From Rickettsiales bacterium (lineage in GTDB: Bacteria > Pseudomonadota > Alphaproteobacteria > Rs-D84), in contig JAITQO010000016.1 of the NCBI GenBank assembly GCA_031288835.1, positions 74,167-126,268 of the forward strand: a stretch of DNA of 52,102 nucleotides, read 5' to 3'. The notes under the pieces are model-generated. The model did no database searches, was not told where the DNA came from, and saw nothing but the letters and a program-made list of their open reading frames with translations. Made by a program: the position numbers and the translations under genes. This document shows positions 6,610 through 47,682 of this stretch, one piece after another. The first letter of the stretch is position 1. Each line of letters starts with the position of its first letter.

Positions 6610-9411
6610 ATGAAAACAATGTTCGAGGTAATCAAAAGACAAAACGGCGAGAGGTTCGCCAAAATGATACGCGGCTATGACAACGGCATATTCGAAGTTC
6701 CGGACATAGATAAAATCGTCGAGTTCGCGGGAAGGGACGCCGAACCGCTTCTGCCCTATCTGCAATCATTGAAAGATATCAGAATCAATGCCGAGAAAGT
6801 TTCAATATCCCCGTTTGAGCTGTTGGAACAGGCCGGATATCATGCGGAATACGCCGACACCTTGGAAAAGCAAAACAGCATTGCCAAATACTTCCAAAAC
6901 GGGGAGCGGCTTTGCACGTTCCGCGACGACAGCCGATATCAAAGGTATTATATAATCAATGCGGTCAGGCATGATATCGACAAAATAATTCGCGAGGATT
7001 TTCCTAGTCCGATGCGAGAGGACCAATACGGCACGTCCGTAATGTCCATTCAGATTTTGAAGAAAGGCGGCTTCATATCCATCAAGAACCGATATAATCA
7101 TACCGTCAATAATCCCGACAATACGTATTCCAGCAATCCAGACAATATAATCTACGGACTGTCGGCTTCAATCCAGCAATATTTCAACGTGGATTTTTCC
7201 AGTATGAAAATCAGTCCGCCGAACGGCTGGTTCCTGGCGGGCAATAAGTTGCTGAAATACAATTATGAAATAAACAACGTTTATTTCGGCGATGATTTTT
7301 ATTACGGAAACGGAGAGATTAAAAGGCTTGATAGCGGCAGGGAAATAATGCTGGATTATTTCATATTCGATATGAAAACCCGTGAACTTAAAAACCCCGC
7401 CGAGTTGAAGGATGGATTTGTCGACGCCTTCTTGCAAGAAATCGAAGGCAAAAAAATCCAGATTGAAAATACCAAGGAAGGAAACAGGCGGCTTGTCATC
7501 GAAGGCGGTGGGTATGCCGAAACGAGCGGCGGTAAAATCGTATCCCTGTTCATGCCGTCGGTCGGGCGCATCGGCGACAACTTCCTTTGCAAAAATAAAT
7601 CGGCAAAAGAAATCTCGCTGCCGGGGACGCGGTCGGTCGGCTGGAGATTTTTTGACTCATATGATAGCTCATTGATGTCTTTGCTTGGAGATTACCATGT
7701 GATAAAATCACTACTATCCGTTATTCTCCACAAATACAAGATAGGCGATGTTTCTGAGAAAATTCTTGCCGAACATCCGGACCTTTATTCCGTTTATTTA
7801 GAACACAAGCCGGATTTTGAAAACGTGCCGCGGGAATATTGGACTCCGGAATTGGTGCAAAAGTATACATGGGAAAATATAGAGCGTTTTGATACATCGG
7901 TTGAAAATCCCAGTATCATACAGATATTGAGATATTATCCGCAGTTGATACCGTCGTATGTGAAAGAAAAAGGGTTGTCTTTGTTGGTTAAAAGAAAGCT
8001 GGCGGACATAGATTATGACCTAGCCAAACTCGGATTGTCCGCCGGACTATGGAATCTGCGATATGTGCCATCTGAATTAATGGACAAACATCCCGATTTG
8101 TGGAGCGTTTGCGCGGCGAACTTCAGGAATGGCGCCCATGACCTGCCGTTTAATGAATACTGTTATGACGAAGAAAAATATGCATCGCCTGAAGAACAAA
8201 ACAAGCCTGTGCTTGAAAAACTGGTTGAGAACGCGGACGATATGGATATGTTGAACAATATATTATTCAAAAACGTCTCAACATACCCGGGATTGCATGA
8301 TATGGCGCAGAAAAAATATCTGGCGCTGATGGATGCGTGGGCTGAAAAAATACGCGGCTTGGACGAAAACCAGGCGGGAGAGGAAAAAAAGCGCTTTGGC
8401 TGGGCGATTGATAGATTACCAGCCGGATTCGGATGGGAGCGTGACGCATATGATTTTGATTGGGAAATAATGAAAAAAGCGATTCATCTGGACGATGTGA
8501 TAAAACCATATTTTTACAGTTCCGTAGCCGGAAAGATTGCCGAATATCACGCGGATGACATGCGGGTCATGACGGAAATACTTGAAACCCATCCGGAACT
8601 CGGCGACACAATTATGAATAATATCAAAGATGATACATGGGCGTTCATTGCTCCGAAACAGTTAAAAATTTTGTTGTCAGACAATTGTAGCGAATATACT
8701 CTTAGAAATGTTCTTGAGAAGATTCAGGATAAATACAAGATTGATGAACTTTACGATGTCGTGGTCAAAAATAATCCCAAACTGGCATACAAATGTTTCC
8801 CAAAGAGCATGCATACGATTGATATGTATATGAACAAGGATTTTCATGATTATGACGGAGAATTGCTGAAAGATTTTCTGGAAGGCCTACCGGATGAGAA
8901 AAGGGCGGCGGCGTTCGCCAAGGTCGTTAACAACATAGACATGCTGCATTCAAGACATGTGTTAGAATTCAAGATAATCAATATGGCACCGAACGACACT
9001 CTTGCGCTGCATGCTGCGAAAAAACTGGCCGCGACGGGGAGGATGGGACATTATTGCTATGAAAGGATAAAGTCCGAAAATGTCAGAAAAGACAAACAGA
9101 TTTTGGATGCTGCCTTGGCCGATTGGTATAAAACGGATTATTCCGTGACCAATAATGTGATAAAAAAGTTTATCAATTCCATACCGGCCGATATTCGCGG
9201 GAAAATACCGTCTGAAATAAAAAAGGACAATAATCGGAAAATAATAGAAAATTTAAAAAAGATGCCGGCATACATTGCGGAAAATATCAGGAAAAAGGCC
9301 GATAAGATTAAAAAAGACATGCTCGCCAACGCCAAAGAGCGGCTGAAGCATGGTGCGGAGAATCGCGCCGCCCGAAAAATCCCGCCGCATGACGCGGGCG
9401 GAAGAGAATAA
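6610..9411 (+). CDS. Large (about 933 aa) repeat-rich hypothetical protein, effector-like
   Basis: The track ORF 6214..9411 has no credible start upstream, and that part overlaps L5 in antisense. The first ATG with a promoter is at 6610 (MKTMFEVIKRQNGERF). The C-terminal half carries recurring helical modules containing HPDL/HPEL/NPKL (HPDLYSVYLEH, HPDLWSVCAAN, HPELGDTIMNN, NPKLAYKCF). There is a K-rich tail and no signal peptide. Confidence 0.65.
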   Translation: MKTMFEVIKRQNGERFAKMIRGYDNGIFEVPDIDKIVEFAGRDAEPLLPYLQSLKDIRINAEKVSISPFELLEQAGYHAEYADTLEKQNSIAKYFQNGERLCTFRDDSRYQRYYIINAVRHDIDKIIREDFPSPMREDQYGTSVMSIQILKKGGFISIKNRYNHTVNNPDNTYSSNPDNIIYGLSASIQQYFNVDFSSMKISPPNGWFLAGNKLLKYNYEINNVYFGDDFYYGNGEIKRLDSGREIMLDYFIFDMKTRELKNPAELKDGFVDAFLQEIEGKKIQIENTKEGNRRLVIEGGGYAETSGGKIVSLFMPSVGRIGDNFLCKNKSAKEISLPGTRSVGWRFFDSYDSSLMSLLGDYHVIKSLLSVILHKYKIGDVSEKILAEHPDLYSVYLEHKPDFENVPREYWTPELVQKYTWENIERFDTSVENPSIIQILRYYPQLIPSYVKEKGLSLLVKRKLADIDYDLAKLGLSAGLWNLRYVPSELMDKHPDLWSVCAANFRNGAHDLPFNEYCYDEEKYASPEEQNKPVLEKLVENADDMDMLNNILFKNVSTYPGLHDMAQKKYLALMDAWAEKIRGLDENQAGEEKKRFGWAIDRLPAGFGWERDAYDFDWEIMKKAIHLDDVIKPYFYSSVAGKIAEYHADDMRVMTEILETHPELGDTIMNNIKDDTWAFIAPKQLKILLSDNCSEYTLRNVLEKIQDKYKIDELYDVVVKNNPKLAYKCFPKSMHTIDMYMNKDFHDYDGELLKDFLEGLPDEKRAAAFAKVVNNIDMLHSRHVLEFKIINMAPNDTLALHAAKKLAATGRMGHYCYERIKSENVRKDKQILDAALADWYKTDYSVTNNVIKKFINSIPADIRGKIPSEIKKDNNRKIIENLKKMPAYIAENIRKKADKIKKDMLANAKERLKHGAENRAARKIPPHDAGGRE

Positions 9412-12877: not shown

Positions 12878-13023
12878 GCGGACGGGAATCTTGCGCTTCG
12901 GCGACATTTTTGACCACATCCGCCCGCATTTTTTACGTTATGCCGCCTTGCATACGGCAATTACCAAGTATCTCTATGTTTTGCATAGAACGCGTGATTT
13001 TTATTGAAAATCTAAAATTTTGC

Positions 13024-13032
13024 TGGTATTAT
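13024..13032 (+). promoter_or_regulatory. Extended -10-like box (TGGTATTAT) for leader L2
   Basis: TGGTATTAT about 200 nt upstream of the PAP2 start. The analogous TATAAT boxes precede L3, L4 and L5. Confidence 0.4.
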
Positions 13033-13038
13033 CGTATT

Positions 13039-13234
13039 GTCTCTTGAAAACAGGGATTAAGGCATAGTTGGTGAGGTCGGCTTAGAACACCGAAACATTG
13101 CACTGATTCTATGTCCTGGCTCATGGTCAGGATGTCGCCATTCGCAAGACGGCGAGGTCATCAATGTTTGACTGTTCTAACTCCTGACCACCTCTAACTG
13201 GTGGTCTTTTCTTTTATGGAAAAAGGGGGAGAAA
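13039..13234 (+). promoter_or_regulatory. Structured 5' leader copy L2 (upstream of PAP2 phosphatase)
   Basis: P1 TCCTGGC-TCATG-GTCAGGA (13114-13132). P2 TCGCC-ATTCGCAAGAC-GGCGA (13135-13155). Duplicated arm TCCTGACC (13182-13189) overlaps terminator GACCACC-TCTAACT-GGTGGTC plus TTTTCTTTT (13186-13215). SD GGGGGAG follows. Confidence 0.75.
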
Positions 13235-13765
13235 ATGTCAAGACTTAGAACTCTTGGCGCGGTCTTTGTCTGTTCGGTGCTGATAACGGCGAACGAAGTT
13301 TTCGCCAAATCGGCCATTGGAAGGCTCGGCGACCTTACGCAGGTCATAATTCCCGCGTATGCGTTCGGAATGGCCATGAATGAGAAAGATTGGAATGGCG
13401 CCGGACAATTCATATATTCGTTTGGAATGACGGAAATAAGCGTCTTCGGATTGAAATCCATAGTGGATGAAAAAAGACCCGACGGCAGTGATAAGAATTC
13501 GTTTCCCAGCGGGCATGCCGCGGCCGCTTTCAGCGGCGCGACTTTCATTCATAAAAGATACGGAATTAAAAGGGCGATTCTTCCTTATCTGATGGCCGGG
13601 TTTACGGGGTATTCGAGAATATCCGCCGACAAGCATTATTTGCACGATGTGGTCGCCGGCGCGGTGATAAGTGGATTGTTTACTTGGATTTTTGTTGATA
13701 AATATGGCGTTCAGGTATCGGCGGGTCCAGAGTTTATAAAAGTTGGGTTCAGGACAGAGTTTTAA
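13235..13765 (+). CDS. PAP2-family phosphatase with signal peptide (paralogue 1)
   Basis: KRPDGSDKNSFPSGHAAAAF ... SRISADKHYLHDV gives the three PAP2 motifs (KxxxxxxRP, PSGH, SRxxxxxHxxxD). Only 176 aa, N-terminal signal peptide, C-terminal F. Confidence 0.85.
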   Translation: MSRLRTLGAVFVCSVLITANEVFAKSAIGRLGDLTQVIIPAYAFGMAMNEKDWNGAGQFIYSFGMTEISVFGLKSIVDEKRPDGSDKNSFPSGHAAAAFSGATFIHKRYGIKRAILPYLMAGFTGYSRISADKHYLHDVVAGAVISGLFTWIFVDKYGVQVSAGPEFIKVGFRTEF

Positions 13766-13894: not shown

Positions 13895-15061
13895 ATGAAA
13901 AAAATTTGCATATTGGCTTTTGCCGCCTATCTGGCGATTTCGTCCTCGCGCGCGGCGTTTCAGGGTTCCGCGAAATCGTATTATTTGGTGGATTTTCAGT
14001 CCGGACAGGCGATTGCGTCGAAATCTCCGGATGACCTGATGCCGCCGTCCTCGATGCTGAAACTGATGACGGCGGAGCTCGCGTTCGGCGCGCTGAAATC
14101 CGGAAAATTGAAAATGAACGACAAACTGCCGGTATCGCGCGCCGCCGACTATAAGAACCCCGTGCTTGCGGGCGCGTCCAAAGTCTGCCTCGAGCAGGGG
14201 CAGACGATTACCGTCGAGGACGCGCTGGCCGGACTGATTGCGGTTTCGGGCGGCGACGCGGCGATTGTCCTGGCCGAAAAACTCGTGGGCACCGAGCGGC
14301 AGTTCGTGGAAATGATGACGCGGCGCGCGCGGGAAATCGGAATGGAATATACGTCGTTCGGAAACGCTAGCGGATTGCCGGACGCGGATAATCTCTCGAC
14401 GTCGCGGGAATTGATGATTCTGGCCGGGCATATTTTCAGGACGTATCCGGAGTATTTGCATTTCTTCAAGATTCGCCGGTTCGAATTCGTGAACCCGTTG
14501 TCCGATTTTTGCCGCAGCTGGGCGAAGTCGCACGCGATCAATTACAACAAACTGCTGTTCATAATGGGCGGCGCCGAGGGAATGAAAACCGGGCATACGT
14601 CTAAGGGCGGATACGGCGTCGTCGCGGCCGCAAGCCGCAGGGGGAGGCGGCTTATCGGCGTAATCAACGGCCTGCCCGCGAAGAACCACGACGCCTTGGC
14701 GGCCGAGGCGAAGCGCCTTTTGGAATACGGCTATGAAAACACTTTCAATCAGGAAATAAAATCGGAAATCGCCGTTCCCGTGTGGTATGGGGCGGAGGAA
14801 ACAGTCCGCGCGAAAACTAAACATCCGTTCTTCCTGACGTTCGAGAACGGGGCCAATCTGGGCGGATTGCGCGTGGTCGCGCTGGTTTCGGGCAAAATCG
14901 CCGCGCCCGTGAGAAAGGGCGGCGAAATCGGAACGGCGGTCGCGTATATGAACGGCGTGGAAATCAAATCAGAAAAACTATACGCGACGGAATCCGTGCC
15001 GAGGGTTCGCTTCTTTGGCCGCATGTTCAGGAACATAAAATATTTTCTGACGAGGAAATGA
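13895..15061 (+). CDS. D-alanyl-D-alanine carboxypeptidase (S11, PBP5/6 family)
   Basis: Signal peptide, SMLK (SxxK), VSGGD and KTGHT motifs. Confidence 0.88.
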   Translation: MKKICILAFAAYLAISSSRAAFQGSAKSYYLVDFQSGQAIASKSPDDLMPPSSMLKLMTAELAFGALKSGKLKMNDKLPVSRAADYKNPVLAGASKVCLEQGQTITVEDALAGLIAVSGGDAAIVLAEKLVGTERQFVEMMTRRAREIGMEYTSFGNASGLPDADNLSTSRELMILAGHIFRTYPEYLHFFKIRRFEFVNPLSDFCRSWAKSHAINYNKLLFIMGGAEGMKTGHTSKGGYGVVAAASRRGRRLIGVINGLPAKNHDALAAEAKRLLEYGYENTFNQEIKSEIAVPVWYGAEETVRAKTKHPFFLTFENGANLGGLRVVALVSGKIAAPVRKGGEIGTAVAYMNGVEIKSEKLYATESVPRVRFFGRMFRNIKYFLTRK

Positions 15062-17656: not shown

Positions 17657-17901
17657 GGAATCCAAAGGGATTTGGGTTCGGGACTGTTAGAAGTCCTTTG
17701 TGTAAGCGGTGCAGAAGCACTGATATCTGAATAAAATATCAACCGCTTTCTGCATTGAGATTATCCCCCGACTGTGGTCGGGGAGCCGCGGTATATAAAA
17801 TACGACAAGCCGAAAAACCGCGGAGTCATTCTTACACATGATTTCTAAACTCCCCGACCGCCAATTCCGTTGACGGTTTTTTTACGACAAAAGGGGGAAA
17901 A
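17657..17901 (+). promoter_or_regulatory. Structured 5' leader copy L4 (upstream of secreted Cys-rich protein)
   Basis: GCACTGA block. P1 TCCCCCGAC-TGTG-GTCGGGGA (17764-17784). Long P2 CCGCGG...CCGCGG (17786-17823). GATTTCTAAAC, then duplicated arm TCCCCGACC (17851-17859) overlapping terminator ACCGCCAA-TTCC-GTTGACGGT plus T7 (17857-17883). SD GGGGGA. Confidence 0.7.
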
Positions 17902-18402
17902 ATGAAAACAACCGGGGCATTCATTTTGATTTTGACATTCGCGTTAATTGCCGGTACCGCATCGGCGGAAAGGTTGTGCCAATTGGATTGGTTCGAGGCG
18001 TGGAAGAACGCGAGCGGCGCGTTGTCTAATTATAGAACGTCGAATAGCCGGGGTGACTATGATAATTCTACTAGTAACGGAGGGATGGGAACATGGGCGG
18101 TAACGTCCGACCAGGGGAGCGCGGGAGTGTATCATACGGTATCGGGGCAATCATTTTGTTCAAGCGTAGGTAATGGCACATTTACTAATTGGTCTCCTGA
18201 TTTTGATACATCTATATCATCAAACAACAAGTATTGTTGGTGTAGAATGACAAGTCCGAACCTTGGCGGGTCTTGGGCGTTCTTGGGCGACTATGGTTCG
18301 GCAGCTGATTGCGCGATCGACTGCGCGCTCCACTGCGCGAATTGTGTTCGGAGCGGCGCGGACGGCTCGTGCAACCGCTCCGCCGTCCTGGCGCTGCCGT
18401 AA
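17902..18402 (+). CDS. Secreted Cys-rich protein, CWCR family paralogue 1
   Basis: Signal peptide MKTTGAFILILTFALIAGTASA. C-terminal block YCWCRMTSPNLGGSWAFLGDYGSAADCAIDCALHCANCV is shared with the convergent neighbour. Confidence 0.75.
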   Translation: MKTTGAFILILTFALIAGTASAERLCQLDWFEAWKNASGALSNYRTSNSRGDYDNSTSNGGMGTWAVTSDQGSAGVYHTVSGQSFCSSVGNGTFTNWSPDFDTSISSNNKYCWCRMTSPNLGGSWAFLGDYGSAADCAIDCALHCANCVRSGADGSCNRSAVLALP

Positions 18403-29763: not shown

Positions 29764-29946
29764 TTTGTTTCCACCTTTTGGTTGTTTGTTATGTGTCCTA
29801 AAAAGGCGGCGGGATTTTGAAACAATCGTAGTCGAACGACCCCGCCGTATAACCGGCGCAATCCCGCCACTGCGGGATAGTATTGTCTGCGCCTATCCGT
29901 GCGCATCGACCACGAGATGTTTCAAGTCTCGGTTCCTTTCGGATAC
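29764..29946 (-). promoter_or_regulatory. Leader-like element L6 (divergent relative of L1-L5)
   Basis: Reverse strand: TATGAT box. Long-range TATCCG...CGGATA pairing. GACAATACTATCCCGC-AGTG-GCGGGAT P1 (29861-29878). Hairpin GCGCCG-GTTATA-CGGCG. GATTGTTTCAAAATCCCGCCGCC repeats the P1 5' arm and is followed by T5 (29800-29815). Confidence 0.45.
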
Positions 29947-40066: not shown

Positions 40067-40380
40067 AAGAGCGCCCGATTCTGTTGCCGGGTTCGGGCGG
40101 ACCCCGCGATGCGCGTAACGATGCTTTGACCAATCGGCCTCCGCATCAAGCCAATTTAGGCGGCCATCGCAAGGCGAACGTTGTCGTTCGCAGGAATGTT
40201 TTTAGCATTCATTTAACGGTTTTTTCGGAAACCACTCCGGAACACAAGCGTTGCCTTTCAATCCCTGTCGAATCTATGTCAGCCCCGTAAACAAATCAAT
40301 TGGTGGAGCTGTGGGGTGCCGCCCCCCAGTCCAAAAGACCTATTGCACAGCGCACTCAGTGTCATCTTCGCCGAAGCGAC
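40067..40380 (-). ncRNA. ssrA: Two-piece (circularly permuted) tmRNA gene
   Basis: Reverse strand: TATAAT (40387-40392). Acceptor piece ends GGGGGGCGGCACCCCACAGCTCCACCA (CCA at 40301-40303). Short spacer. Coding piece starts GGGGCTGACATAGATTCGACAGGG (5' end 40286). Tag reading frame GCG AAC GAC AAC GTT CGC CTT GCG ATG GCC GCC TAA = ANDNVRLAMAA (40156-40191). Terminal hairpin plus CTCTTT near 40067. Confidence 0.8.
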
Positions 40381-40473
40381 ATTCTTATTATAGCGCGCGC
40401 CGGCCGAATTTTCAAGCGCCCGGAAAATATCCTGGACAGGCGTTCCGAATAATTGTTATCATAAAGCGTTTAA

Positions 40474-47483: not shown

Positions 47484-47682
47484 TGATGCAAGCTGGTTGC
47501 CTGTGTTGGGGTGTAGTTACCTCGCAGAAAGCGTCCGTAGACGATAAATACTCCTTATGCCATGGCAAGGAGGGTGACAGAATAAATCGAATATGTCACA
47601 CAATTCTTTCTGATTGTAACTAACCTCCTGCCACCAGAACCATTCCGGTGGCTTTTAATTCCGCCGGCAAAGGAGGCGCAAT
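47484..47682 (+). promoter_or_regulatory. Structured 5' leader copy L3 (upstream of second PAP2 phosphatase)
   Basis: GCGTCCGTAGACG hairpin. ATACTCCTTATGCC-ATGG-CAAGGAG P1 (47551-47572). P2 GTGACA-GAATAAATCGAATA-TGTCAC (47574-47599). GATTGTAACTAACCTCCTGCC (47624-47632) overlaps terminator GCCACC-AGAACCATTCC-GGTGGC plus TTTT (47630-47656). The real RBS GGCAAAGGAGG mimics the P1 3' arm. Confidence 0.72.

Follow-up and report, generated by a model that had tools for sequence, protein, structure and literature searches.

Six structured leaders with a core resembling sRNA-Xcc1 as probable attenuators in a Rickettsiales genome

sRNA-Xcc1 (Rfam RF02221) is catalogued as a trans-acting small RNA (sRNA) of unknown mechanism. 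It has been reported as an independent RNA of 88 nucleotides (nt) in X. campestris, by Northern blot and rapid amplification of cDNA ends in Xcc 8004 (PMC2996969), and copies have been placed 5' of symE in the Xanthomonas integron cassette with the widest distribution (bioRxiv 10.1101/2025.06.18.660453), 5' of an ORF6N gene in APSE phages (bioRxiv 10.1101/2020.03.17.996009) and, in Xylella, in a tandem array of five copies ~385 nt apart (PMC12189769). Bartonella Brt1-9 / Trp1-9 involve multi-copy structured RNAs of ~200 nt, proposed to act both as attenuator and as trans-acting sRNA in response to an unknown trigger (PMC5387305). Here we analyse a stretch of 52,102 nt from a Rickettsiales bacterium (assembly GCA_031288835.1, contig JAITQO010000016.1, positions 74,167 to 126,268 of the forward strand; hereafter the window), in which six genes carry, 5' of them, one folded RNA leader of ~200 bases. 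Judged from sequence and predicted fold, the core of this leader looks like a divergent relative of sRNA-Xcc1, and it is likely, in our assessment, that the leaders are cis-acting attenuators in which this core, transcribed from its own promoter, is joined to an expression platform.

Six copies and two alternative folds

A covariance model (R1) trained on leaders L1 and L2 together with one metagenomic leader of a PAP2 phosphatase gene recovered L4 (38.9 bits, E 2e-9) and L6 (21.8 bits, E 2.6e-4) in the window, and a second model (R2), trained on 21 family members without L3 and without L5 and run with filters off, recovered L3 (31.4 bits, E 3.6e-6) and L5 (20.7 bits, E 1.6e-3). The unfiltered R2 search of the 52-kb window returned exactly six loci, L1-L6, and because the next match reached only 11.4 bits (E 0.32), a seventh copy is not indicated and the count stands at six, no more and no fewer. 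These are the loci, and the only loci, for which a preliminary description had proposed one common architecture, and their coordinates and order of elements were likewise upheld by the R1 and R2 searches. An automatic longest-stem search chose wrong stems for the arms and was replaced by curated anchors with duplex folding; similarly, MAFFT misplaced hairpin P2 when L4 was aligned with L1 and L2, and structural alignments from the covariance models were used instead.

Behind a predicted promoter, each copy runs, in the 5' to 3' direction, through a 5' domain, a C-rich arm C1, a loop of 3-9 nt, a G-rich arm (the G-arm), hairpins P2 and P3, an 8-nt junction with UAAC, a second C-rich arm C2 and an OFF helix whose 5' strand begins within C2 (Table 1). 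The G-arm can pair either with C1, giving hairpin P1, or with C2, giving a stem that closes around P2 and P3; we refer to P1, P2, P3 and the terminator as the OFF fold and to closing stem, P2 and P3 as the ON fold. P3 is formed by GGUCA/UGAUU in L1, GGUCA/UGACU in L2, ACAAU/AUUGU in L3 and ACUAU/AUAGU in L5. A GATTGT/GACTGT sequence described earlier as a linker is indeed present, but it constitutes the 3' strand of P3 (GGUCA/UGAYU). The leader of L2 is preceded by the sole promoter-like site found there.

In all 22 curated members, C1 lies 1-8 nt upstream of the G-arm, C2 is complementary to the same G-arm, and the G-arm:C2 duplex is more stable than the P1 duplex, with the closing duplex of most members reaching 2-3 base pairs (bp) further inward than P1 and so offering a toehold. 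The arms fall into ~10 classes (GGUCAGGA, GGUCGGGA, GUCGGGAAGU, GGUCGGGGAG, GGCGGGAUU, GACAGGAGG, GGCA(A)GGAGG and others) among which both partners change together. The covariation between the P1 3' arm and its distal copy that had been noticed in the window is thus borne out by these members and classes. In a pattern-independent alignment of 20 distinct sequences recovered through PAP2 proteins (A6), 95.1% of cells were paired in the ON fold, with 16/20 pairs changed on both sides, and 90.4% in the OFF fold, with 15/23 pairs so changed. For both folds none of 500 shuffles matched the observed values, and pairing fell to 31-52% when partners were slid by 1-3 columns. An alignment of 72 distinct homologue sequences (A8) gave 96.0% paired cells for the ON fold (closing stem 95%, P2 95%, P3 99%), with 16/19 pairs changed on both sides and 0/500 shuffles reaching this value, and 96.4% for the OFF fold, with 17/23 pairs changed on both sides; the terminator stem was 95% paired, with changes on both sides at 5/6 pairs. 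Moreover, the G-arm column 28 of A8 holds G in 49 sequences and A in 18, and C1 column 4 and C2 column 134 are accordingly C or U, which is direct three-way covariation. With both folds ~96% paired in 72 homologues, the mutually exclusive antiterminator/terminator architecture suggested for the window is supported, and the structured domain is linked through mutually exclusive helices to a terminator or to sequestration of the Shine-Dalgarno (SD) sequence, the arrangement that characterises riboswitches and attenuators. Within A8, columns 7/25 form a G-U wobble in P1 in 39/72 sequences, the same G being Watson-Crick paired in the closing stem (25/137) in 69/72; such asymmetry would weaken P1 systematically, the count being biased since the search pattern fixed C2, and L013 shows the reverse.

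Constrained folding of the window copies gave, for OFF and ON respectively (kcal/mol), -37.2 and -28.7 in L1, -37.0 and -27.9 in L2, -30.2 and -27.5 in L3, -26.2 and -21.0 in L5, -37.6 and -35.9 in L6, and -34.9 and -39.9 in L4. OFF is clearly favoured in L1, L2 and L5, L3 and L6 are near balance, and L4 favours ON; the copies appear, in these calculations, to be differently tuned.

At least four subtypes of 5' domain occur among the leaders. Type A (CAUAGUUAGUAG..GGGCUUAAUCACCC..UACUGAU) is found in L1, L2 and most PAP2 leaders, and is kept with compensatory changes in PAP2 leaders of other metagenome-assembled genomes (MAGs). Type B, with hairpins GAAUCCAAUGGGAAUUGGGUUC, GGGGCUGU..AGCCC and CGGUGCGAAAGCAUCG, occurs in L4 and in most metagenome matches, and its relatives carry a TATAAT box 6-7 nt before the conserved 5' end. 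Type C comprises L3, L5, L031 and L073b, and type D comprises L6, L049 and L019b. Rfam scans of the window (to E 5) and of 20 metagenome loci (to E 0.01) gave no match for the 5' domains; a CcsR1 match of 19 bits, at 14563-14663, falls within the PBP5 gene and was treated as chance. Two further candidates were rejected: a third copy of the C arm in the 5' domain (CACCCGAC in L1) is not conserved in L2, L017 or L024, and a leader peptide starting from the ATG at C1 of L2 has no SD upstream, the ATG itself being replaced by CAG, TTG and ACG in relatives.

Table 1. Coordinates of the leaders, their elements and the genes behind them, in window positions
Feature	Position	Strand	Remarks
L2 promoter-like site, TTGAAA-17 nt-TATTAT	13004-13032	+	TG upstream of the -10 box; predicted start near 13039
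L2 5' domain, type A	13039-13110	+	small 5' hairpin, then stem GUUGGUG/CACUGAU around hairpin UCGGCUUAGAACACCGA
L2 C1, GUCCUGGCU	13113-13121	+	5' arm of hairpin P1; proposed anti-antiterminator strand
L2 G-arm, GGUCAGGAU	13125-13133	+	partner either C1 (P1) or C2 (closing stem)
L2 three-way junction domain, Xcc1-type	13125-13197	+	covariation; full-length RF02221 match of 22.3 bits, below gathering score
L2 P2	13135-13155	+	capped by GCAA tetraloop
L2 P3	13156-13173	+	
L2 junction	13174-13181	+	
L2 C2, UCCUGACC	13182-13189	+	3' strand of closing stem; last 4 bases are the first 4 of the terminator stem
L2 intrinsic terminator	13186-13215	+	GACCACC-loop-GGUGGUC (13186-13206), then UUUUCUUUU
L2 SD, GGGGGAG	13225-13231	+	
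PAP2 phosphatase gene behind L2	13235-13765	+	ATG at 13235; 176 amino acids (aa), signal peptide
L1 leader	5647-5830 (core 5663-5770)	-	R1/R2 models; Rfam sRNA-Xcc1 match
L1-controlled gene	5233-5646	-	137-aa Cys-rich secreted protein
L4 leader, type-B 5' domain	17657-17901 (core 17763-17886)	+	Xcc1 match 17777-17866
L4-controlled gene	17902-18402	+	166-aa Cys-rich secreted protein
L3 leader	47484-47682 (core 47549-47660)	+	GGCAAGGAGG / CCUCCUGCC arms; R2 search
Second PAP2 gene, downstream of L3	47683-48231	+	
L5, orphan copy of the L3 subtype	6351-6528	-	R2 search
L6 leader	29764-29946 (core 29785-29881, C2 29808-29816)	-	R1 search; precedes a 109-aa gene
L6 SD helix	29801-29809 with 29771-29779	-	CCGCCUUUU with SD region AAAAGGUGG of the 109-aa gene

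Relation of the core to sRNA-Xcc1

At gathering thresholds, Rfam reported only tRNAs and a two-piece transfer-messenger RNA (tmRNA) in the window and matched 0/6 leaders. In E-value mode, L4 matched RF02221 with 41.2 bits (E 1.6e-4) and L1 and L2 with 22.3 bits each, all three alignments spanning model positions 1-87, which is its full length. None of L3, L5 and L6 matched RF02221 in the window scan, and the gathering score of 53 bits was reached by no window copy. However, the leader of an orthologous PAP2 gene (L017:136-224) scored 55.9 bits, above that threshold, and another 11 relatives, of type B, scored 36.6-49.4 bits; the case for membership in the Xcc1 family thus rests on these intermediates and not on the window copies. 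The RF02221 structure, a closing stem around two hairpins followed by a C-rich tail, corresponds to the G-arm:C2 stem with P2 and P3, and hence the antiterminator pairing put forward in the preliminary description is the closing stem of the Xcc1 three-way junction, a junction supported here by full-length alignments and by helix pairing in 72 sequences. The same description had found the fold to match no known class and had named an Rfam scan as the check on this; given the E-value-mode matches of L4, L1 and L2 and a relative (L017) that passes the threshold, the claim of a new class fails.

Both the canonical RNA and the alphaproteobacterial elements have a G-rich/C-rich closing stem of 8-10 bp, a long P2, a short P3, a 3' junction of 6-8 nt and a C-rich tail (aCCC / CACC). 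The canonical P2 motif AUACAAUACCC..GGGAAAG is found in PAP2 leaders of other MAGs, and many alphaproteobacterial relatives retain AUACAAUACCC..GGGAA. Its apical motif AUACAAUACCCGaAAGGGGAA is present in L017, L015, L022 and other MAG PAP2 leaders and is recognisable in L4 (AUAAAAUACGACAAGCCGAAAA), but is absent from L6 and from L1 and L2, whose P2 is short and GNRA-capped; what had been described as a TCGCAAGA loop of P2 is, in L1 and L2, a C-G-closed GCAA tetraloop that replaces this apex (GUAA in the relatives L004 and L008).

A gene lies directly 3' on the same strand of canonical copies as well, namely ant in phage Aaphi23 (38 nt downstream), a gene in Stx phage P13803, symE in Xanthomonas cassettes and ORF6N in APSE. 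The P13803 copy stands downstream of isrK and C4: isrK, the C4 antisense RNA and sRNA-Xcc1 follow in series on one strand within ~1.1 kb of its immunity/antiterminator region (L011, 463-650 and 1486-1569), and the same trio has been reported side by side in Xylella (PMC12189769). Canonical Xcc1 as a universal 5' leader was not upheld, a Neisseria prophage copy preceding a late-promoter-like site instead of a gene. The canonical RNA has its 5' end at the closing stem and is described as acting in trans, whereas the alphaproteobacterial elements carry in addition a 5' domain of ~70-110 nt, C1, and either a genuine terminator with U-tract or a helix that sequesters the SD. In L2 the G-arm follows the predicted promoter at a distance of ~85 nt, so an RNA longer than canonical Xcc1 is expected. 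The context also differs, being chromosomal and before genes for exported or surface proteins, and the association with mobile elements that is a trait of Xcc1 was not found, the neighbours of the PAP2 leaders being housekeeping genes, among them rplY, dnaK, nusG, PBP5 and tRNAs. Together these elements form a large divergent clade below the Rfam threshold, and in the literature searched neither an alphaproteobacterial Xcc1 clade nor its C1 arm, terminator platform or cis-regulatory reading is described.

Expression platforms and the genes behind the leaders

In most members, the terminator stem opens with the GAC(C) that ends C2, so that 3-4 bases are shared and a closing stem holding GAC(C) would leave the terminator hairpin unable to close down to the U-tract. 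In subtype D the U-tract is absent and a helix sequestering the SD takes the place of the terminator, with a different sequence in each member (Table 1 for L6; CACCUUUC / GAAAGGUG in L049; UUCCUUUUGG / CCAAAAGGAA in L019b). A transcriptional and a translational platform behind one domain is the pattern expected of a cis-regulator, and the existence of these two platform types argues for cis-regulation. Contrary to the preliminary description, a terminator with T tract is not common to all six window copies, since L5 is without the T-tract and L6 has the SD-sequestering helix instead. The idea that the C-rich segment serves as an anti-SD with P1 as decoy holds clearly only for the L6 subtype, in which the C2 tail pairs with the real SD. 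L5 also lacks a downstream open reading frame (ORF) and has a degenerate P2. A mechanically called 1065-aa ORF (6214-9411, + strand) crosses it antisense; the true start is probably near 6640 (MKTMFEV...), in which case L5 would sit in a divergent intergenic region, lacking a gene of its own.

A scan guided by the PAP2 protein, with one genome per GTDB species, yielded 42 loci, of which almost every one belongs to an uncultured alphaproteobacterium of the gut (goat rumen, termite, horse). R1 placed a leader immediately upstream of PAP2 in 13 of them and found additional paralogous copies, and at least 13 PAP2 orthologues, at 41-72% protein identity, retain the leader. A degenerate DNA pattern matched 69 metagenome contigs; among these and the earlier loci R2 confirmed 82 elements, 72 of them distinct, from rumen, termite and human gut metagenomes. 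The same pattern found one match in 2.9 million viral contigs, a type-B copy (L123, 3772-5110) located after a reverse-transcriptase-like gene of 324 aa whose product has a YVDD motif. In most of the 82 elements with downstream sequence, a gene with an SD begins 13-30 nt past the element. About 70% of 68 unique downstream products open with a signal peptide or lipobox, and their Pfam families include PAP2, GT2 and GT92 glycosyltransferases, TupA-like ATP-grasp, outer-membrane protein (OMP) beta-barrel / Opacity porins, TRL lipoproteins, BspA-type leucine-rich repeats and EcoRI-type methylase; no helix-turn-helix (HTH) family was seen among the examined downstream genes at the Pfam threshold used. 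The envelope-related regulon proposed from the window thus extends to dozens of genes for exported or surface proteins in related metagenomes.

Within the window, the two PAP2 paralogues (176 and 182 aa) have cleavable-looking signal peptides, end in ...TEF and ...TMF, and stand under leaders of different subtypes, A (L2) and C (L3). The Cys-rich secreted proteins behind L1 and L4 have no Pfam match. The gene for an RNHCP-domain zinc-ribbon protein (PF12647, E 7.5e-28; 4585-4905, -) follows the L1-controlled gene after ~330 nt and shares its strand. tRNA genes often lie just 5' of the leaders: L1 begins ~90 nt past a tRNA at 5919-6000 (-), and several metagenome copies begin 160-320 nt past one (L059 1196-1360, L068 1295-1365, L076 133-601). 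The PAP2 orthologue L001 has a tRNA upstream and no leader. The tmRNA of the window, of the two-piece (permuted) alphaproteobacterial kind, is at 40070-40419 (-) and scores 152 bits; taken with the protein matches to MAGs, it assigns the window to an uncultured alphaproteobacterium of the gut.

A proposed three-helix switch, its alternatives and known analogues

We propose that each leader would be transcribed from its own promoter and that C1, the G-arm and C2 would then compete for pairing. In the OFF state, C1 would pair with the G-arm into the local hairpin P1, the first to form during transcription, leaving C2 free; the terminator hairpin could then close fully to the U-tract (or, in the L6 subtype, the C2 tail could pair with the SD), the gene would be off and an RNA of ~170-190 nt would be released. 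In the ON state, the G-arm would pair with C2 and close the Xcc1 three-way junction around P2 and P3, this junction would hold the 3-4 bases (GAC/GACC) at the base of the terminator stem, and RNA polymerase would read through into the gene 13-30 nt downstream. P1 would thereby act as anti-antiterminator, the Xcc1 junction as antiterminator and the third helix as terminator or SD-sequestering helix. The sequences themselves show the anatomy, the covariation behind both states and the two kinds of platform; we infer the direction of switching and the part of a factor that would decide it by stabilising the junction or displacing C1. Because the controlled genes are heterogeneous though mostly exported, and because the arms differ among paralogues of one genome, we consider an RNA-binding protein, or else a physiological signal of a general kind, recognising the conserved junction or the 5' domain, more plausible than a gene-specific metabolite or an antisense RNA. 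Binding of the CsrA type to the GGA in the G-arm was considered as well and set aside.

Several observations weigh against such a switch. The closing stem and the terminator overlap by just 3-4 nt, and in L019b of subtype D the sequestering helix has no overlap with C2 at all. The balance of the folds varies by copy, OFF being favoured by ~9 kcal/mol in L1/L2 and ON by 5 in L4. Since the subtypes vary in their P2 apices and in their 5' domains, a single conserved pocket is lacking. For 69 of the homologues, retrieval relied on a pattern in which parts of the arms were already set, and the arm classes owe most of their variety to the window and the protein-derived loci. The canonical RNA was described as an 88-nt RNA in its own right (PMC2996969), and the Neisseria prophage copy precedes a promoter. 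Finally, the switch is predicted from the sequences of uncultured organisms.

The detection of sRNA-Xcc1 as a discrete RNA of ~88-100 nt (PMC2996969) raises the possibility that the leaders are free-standing genes for trans-acting sRNAs, in which the terminator ends the sRNA and single-stranded C2 serves as seed for SD-like targets. In the OFF fold, the junction and C2 form an unpaired A/U-then-C-rich stretch before a U-tailed terminator, resembling the 3' module of Hfq-type sRNAs; in addition, the G-arms are SD-like and L5 has no downstream gene. However, an SD-bearing gene follows 13-30 nt past the U-tract in most elements with downstream sequence, leaving no space for a promoter, subtype D has an SD-sequestering helix and not a terminator, the arms differ between paralogues of one genome and hence a common seed is absent, and L5 looks degenerate. 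We regard this explanation as rather unlikely on its own; it is compatible with the cis reading, and a terminated leader could also act in trans, as has been proposed for Brt1.

A second alternative takes the Xcc1 junction for an RNA like put or EAR, which would bring about processive antitermination by acting on the transcribing RNA polymerase, with C1/P1 gating its formation. Canonical copies adjoin Q / late-promoter / terminator modules of temperate phages, and the alphaproteobacterial copies precede genes for surface polysaccharides and surface proteins, classes typically served by dedicated antitermination systems (JUMPstart/RfaH, EAR). Against it, the overlap of C2 with the terminator base suffices for ordinary attenuation, many of the downstream genes are single and small, subtype D acts on the SD and not on termination, and similarity to put or EAR is absent from the Rfam scans of the window and 20 metagenome loci; we therefore consider it very unlikely. 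That the leaders are a duplicated promoter-leader cassette or repeat element spreading in genomes without switching, as six copies in 52 kb, the frequent adjacency of tRNA genes and one copy on a predicted viral contig might suggest, is hardly credible, because highly diverged paralogues keep all helices by compensatory changes, the leader is kept upstream of PAP2 orthologues down to ~41% protein identity, and 2.9 million viral contigs gave only a single match.

Attenuation in cis thus remains our preferred reading. In the alphaproteobacterial clade, the Xcc1 fold would be wired as the antiterminator of a three-helix switch before cell-surface genes, which gives an orphan RNA family a mechanism that can be tested, points to control of surface architecture by RNA in very small genomes, and suggests that annotation pipelines overlook an Xcc1-type leader regulon. 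A tentative extension, possible rather than probable, is that the Xcc1 junction responds to a general signal from host or envelope, either as the sensor domain in an orphan riboswitch of wide occurrence or as the place where a dedicated antitermination factor binds. Its multiplication in gut alphaproteobacteria with reduced genomes would have brought dozens of surface-remodelling genes (PAP2 lipid phosphatases, OMPs, lipoproteins, glycosyltransferases) into one regulon, and in phages and integrons it would gate ant and symE, with sRNA-Xcc1 being the terminated or processed leader of a regulator that acts in cis.

Among other known systems, the PyrR-controlled pyr leaders of Bacillus subtilis are three-helix attenuators with an anti-antiterminator. 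They share with the proposed switch the logic of anti-antiterminator, antiterminator and terminator, in which one strand is common to successive helices, but show no sequence or structure similarity, and here the antiterminator is a long-range stem that closes a conserved three-way junction. The c4 RNA of phages P1/P7 and IsrK (RF01695, RF01394) likewise have repeated complementary boxes up- and downstream of a structured RNA in one transcript, and occur alongside canonical Xcc1 in Stx phage P13803 and in Xylella (PMC12189769); by contrast, they are processed antisense RNAs acting on a ribosome-binding site, and Rfam scans gave no C4 or isrK match in the window. Brt1-9 may be the closest functional analogue, as far as a comparison by description goes: they too are multi-copy alphaproteobacterial RNAs of ~200 nt, each directly preceding a gene and resembling a terminator at its 3' end, but their downstream genes all encode XRE-type HTH regulators and the family is reported as genus-specific (PMC5387305).

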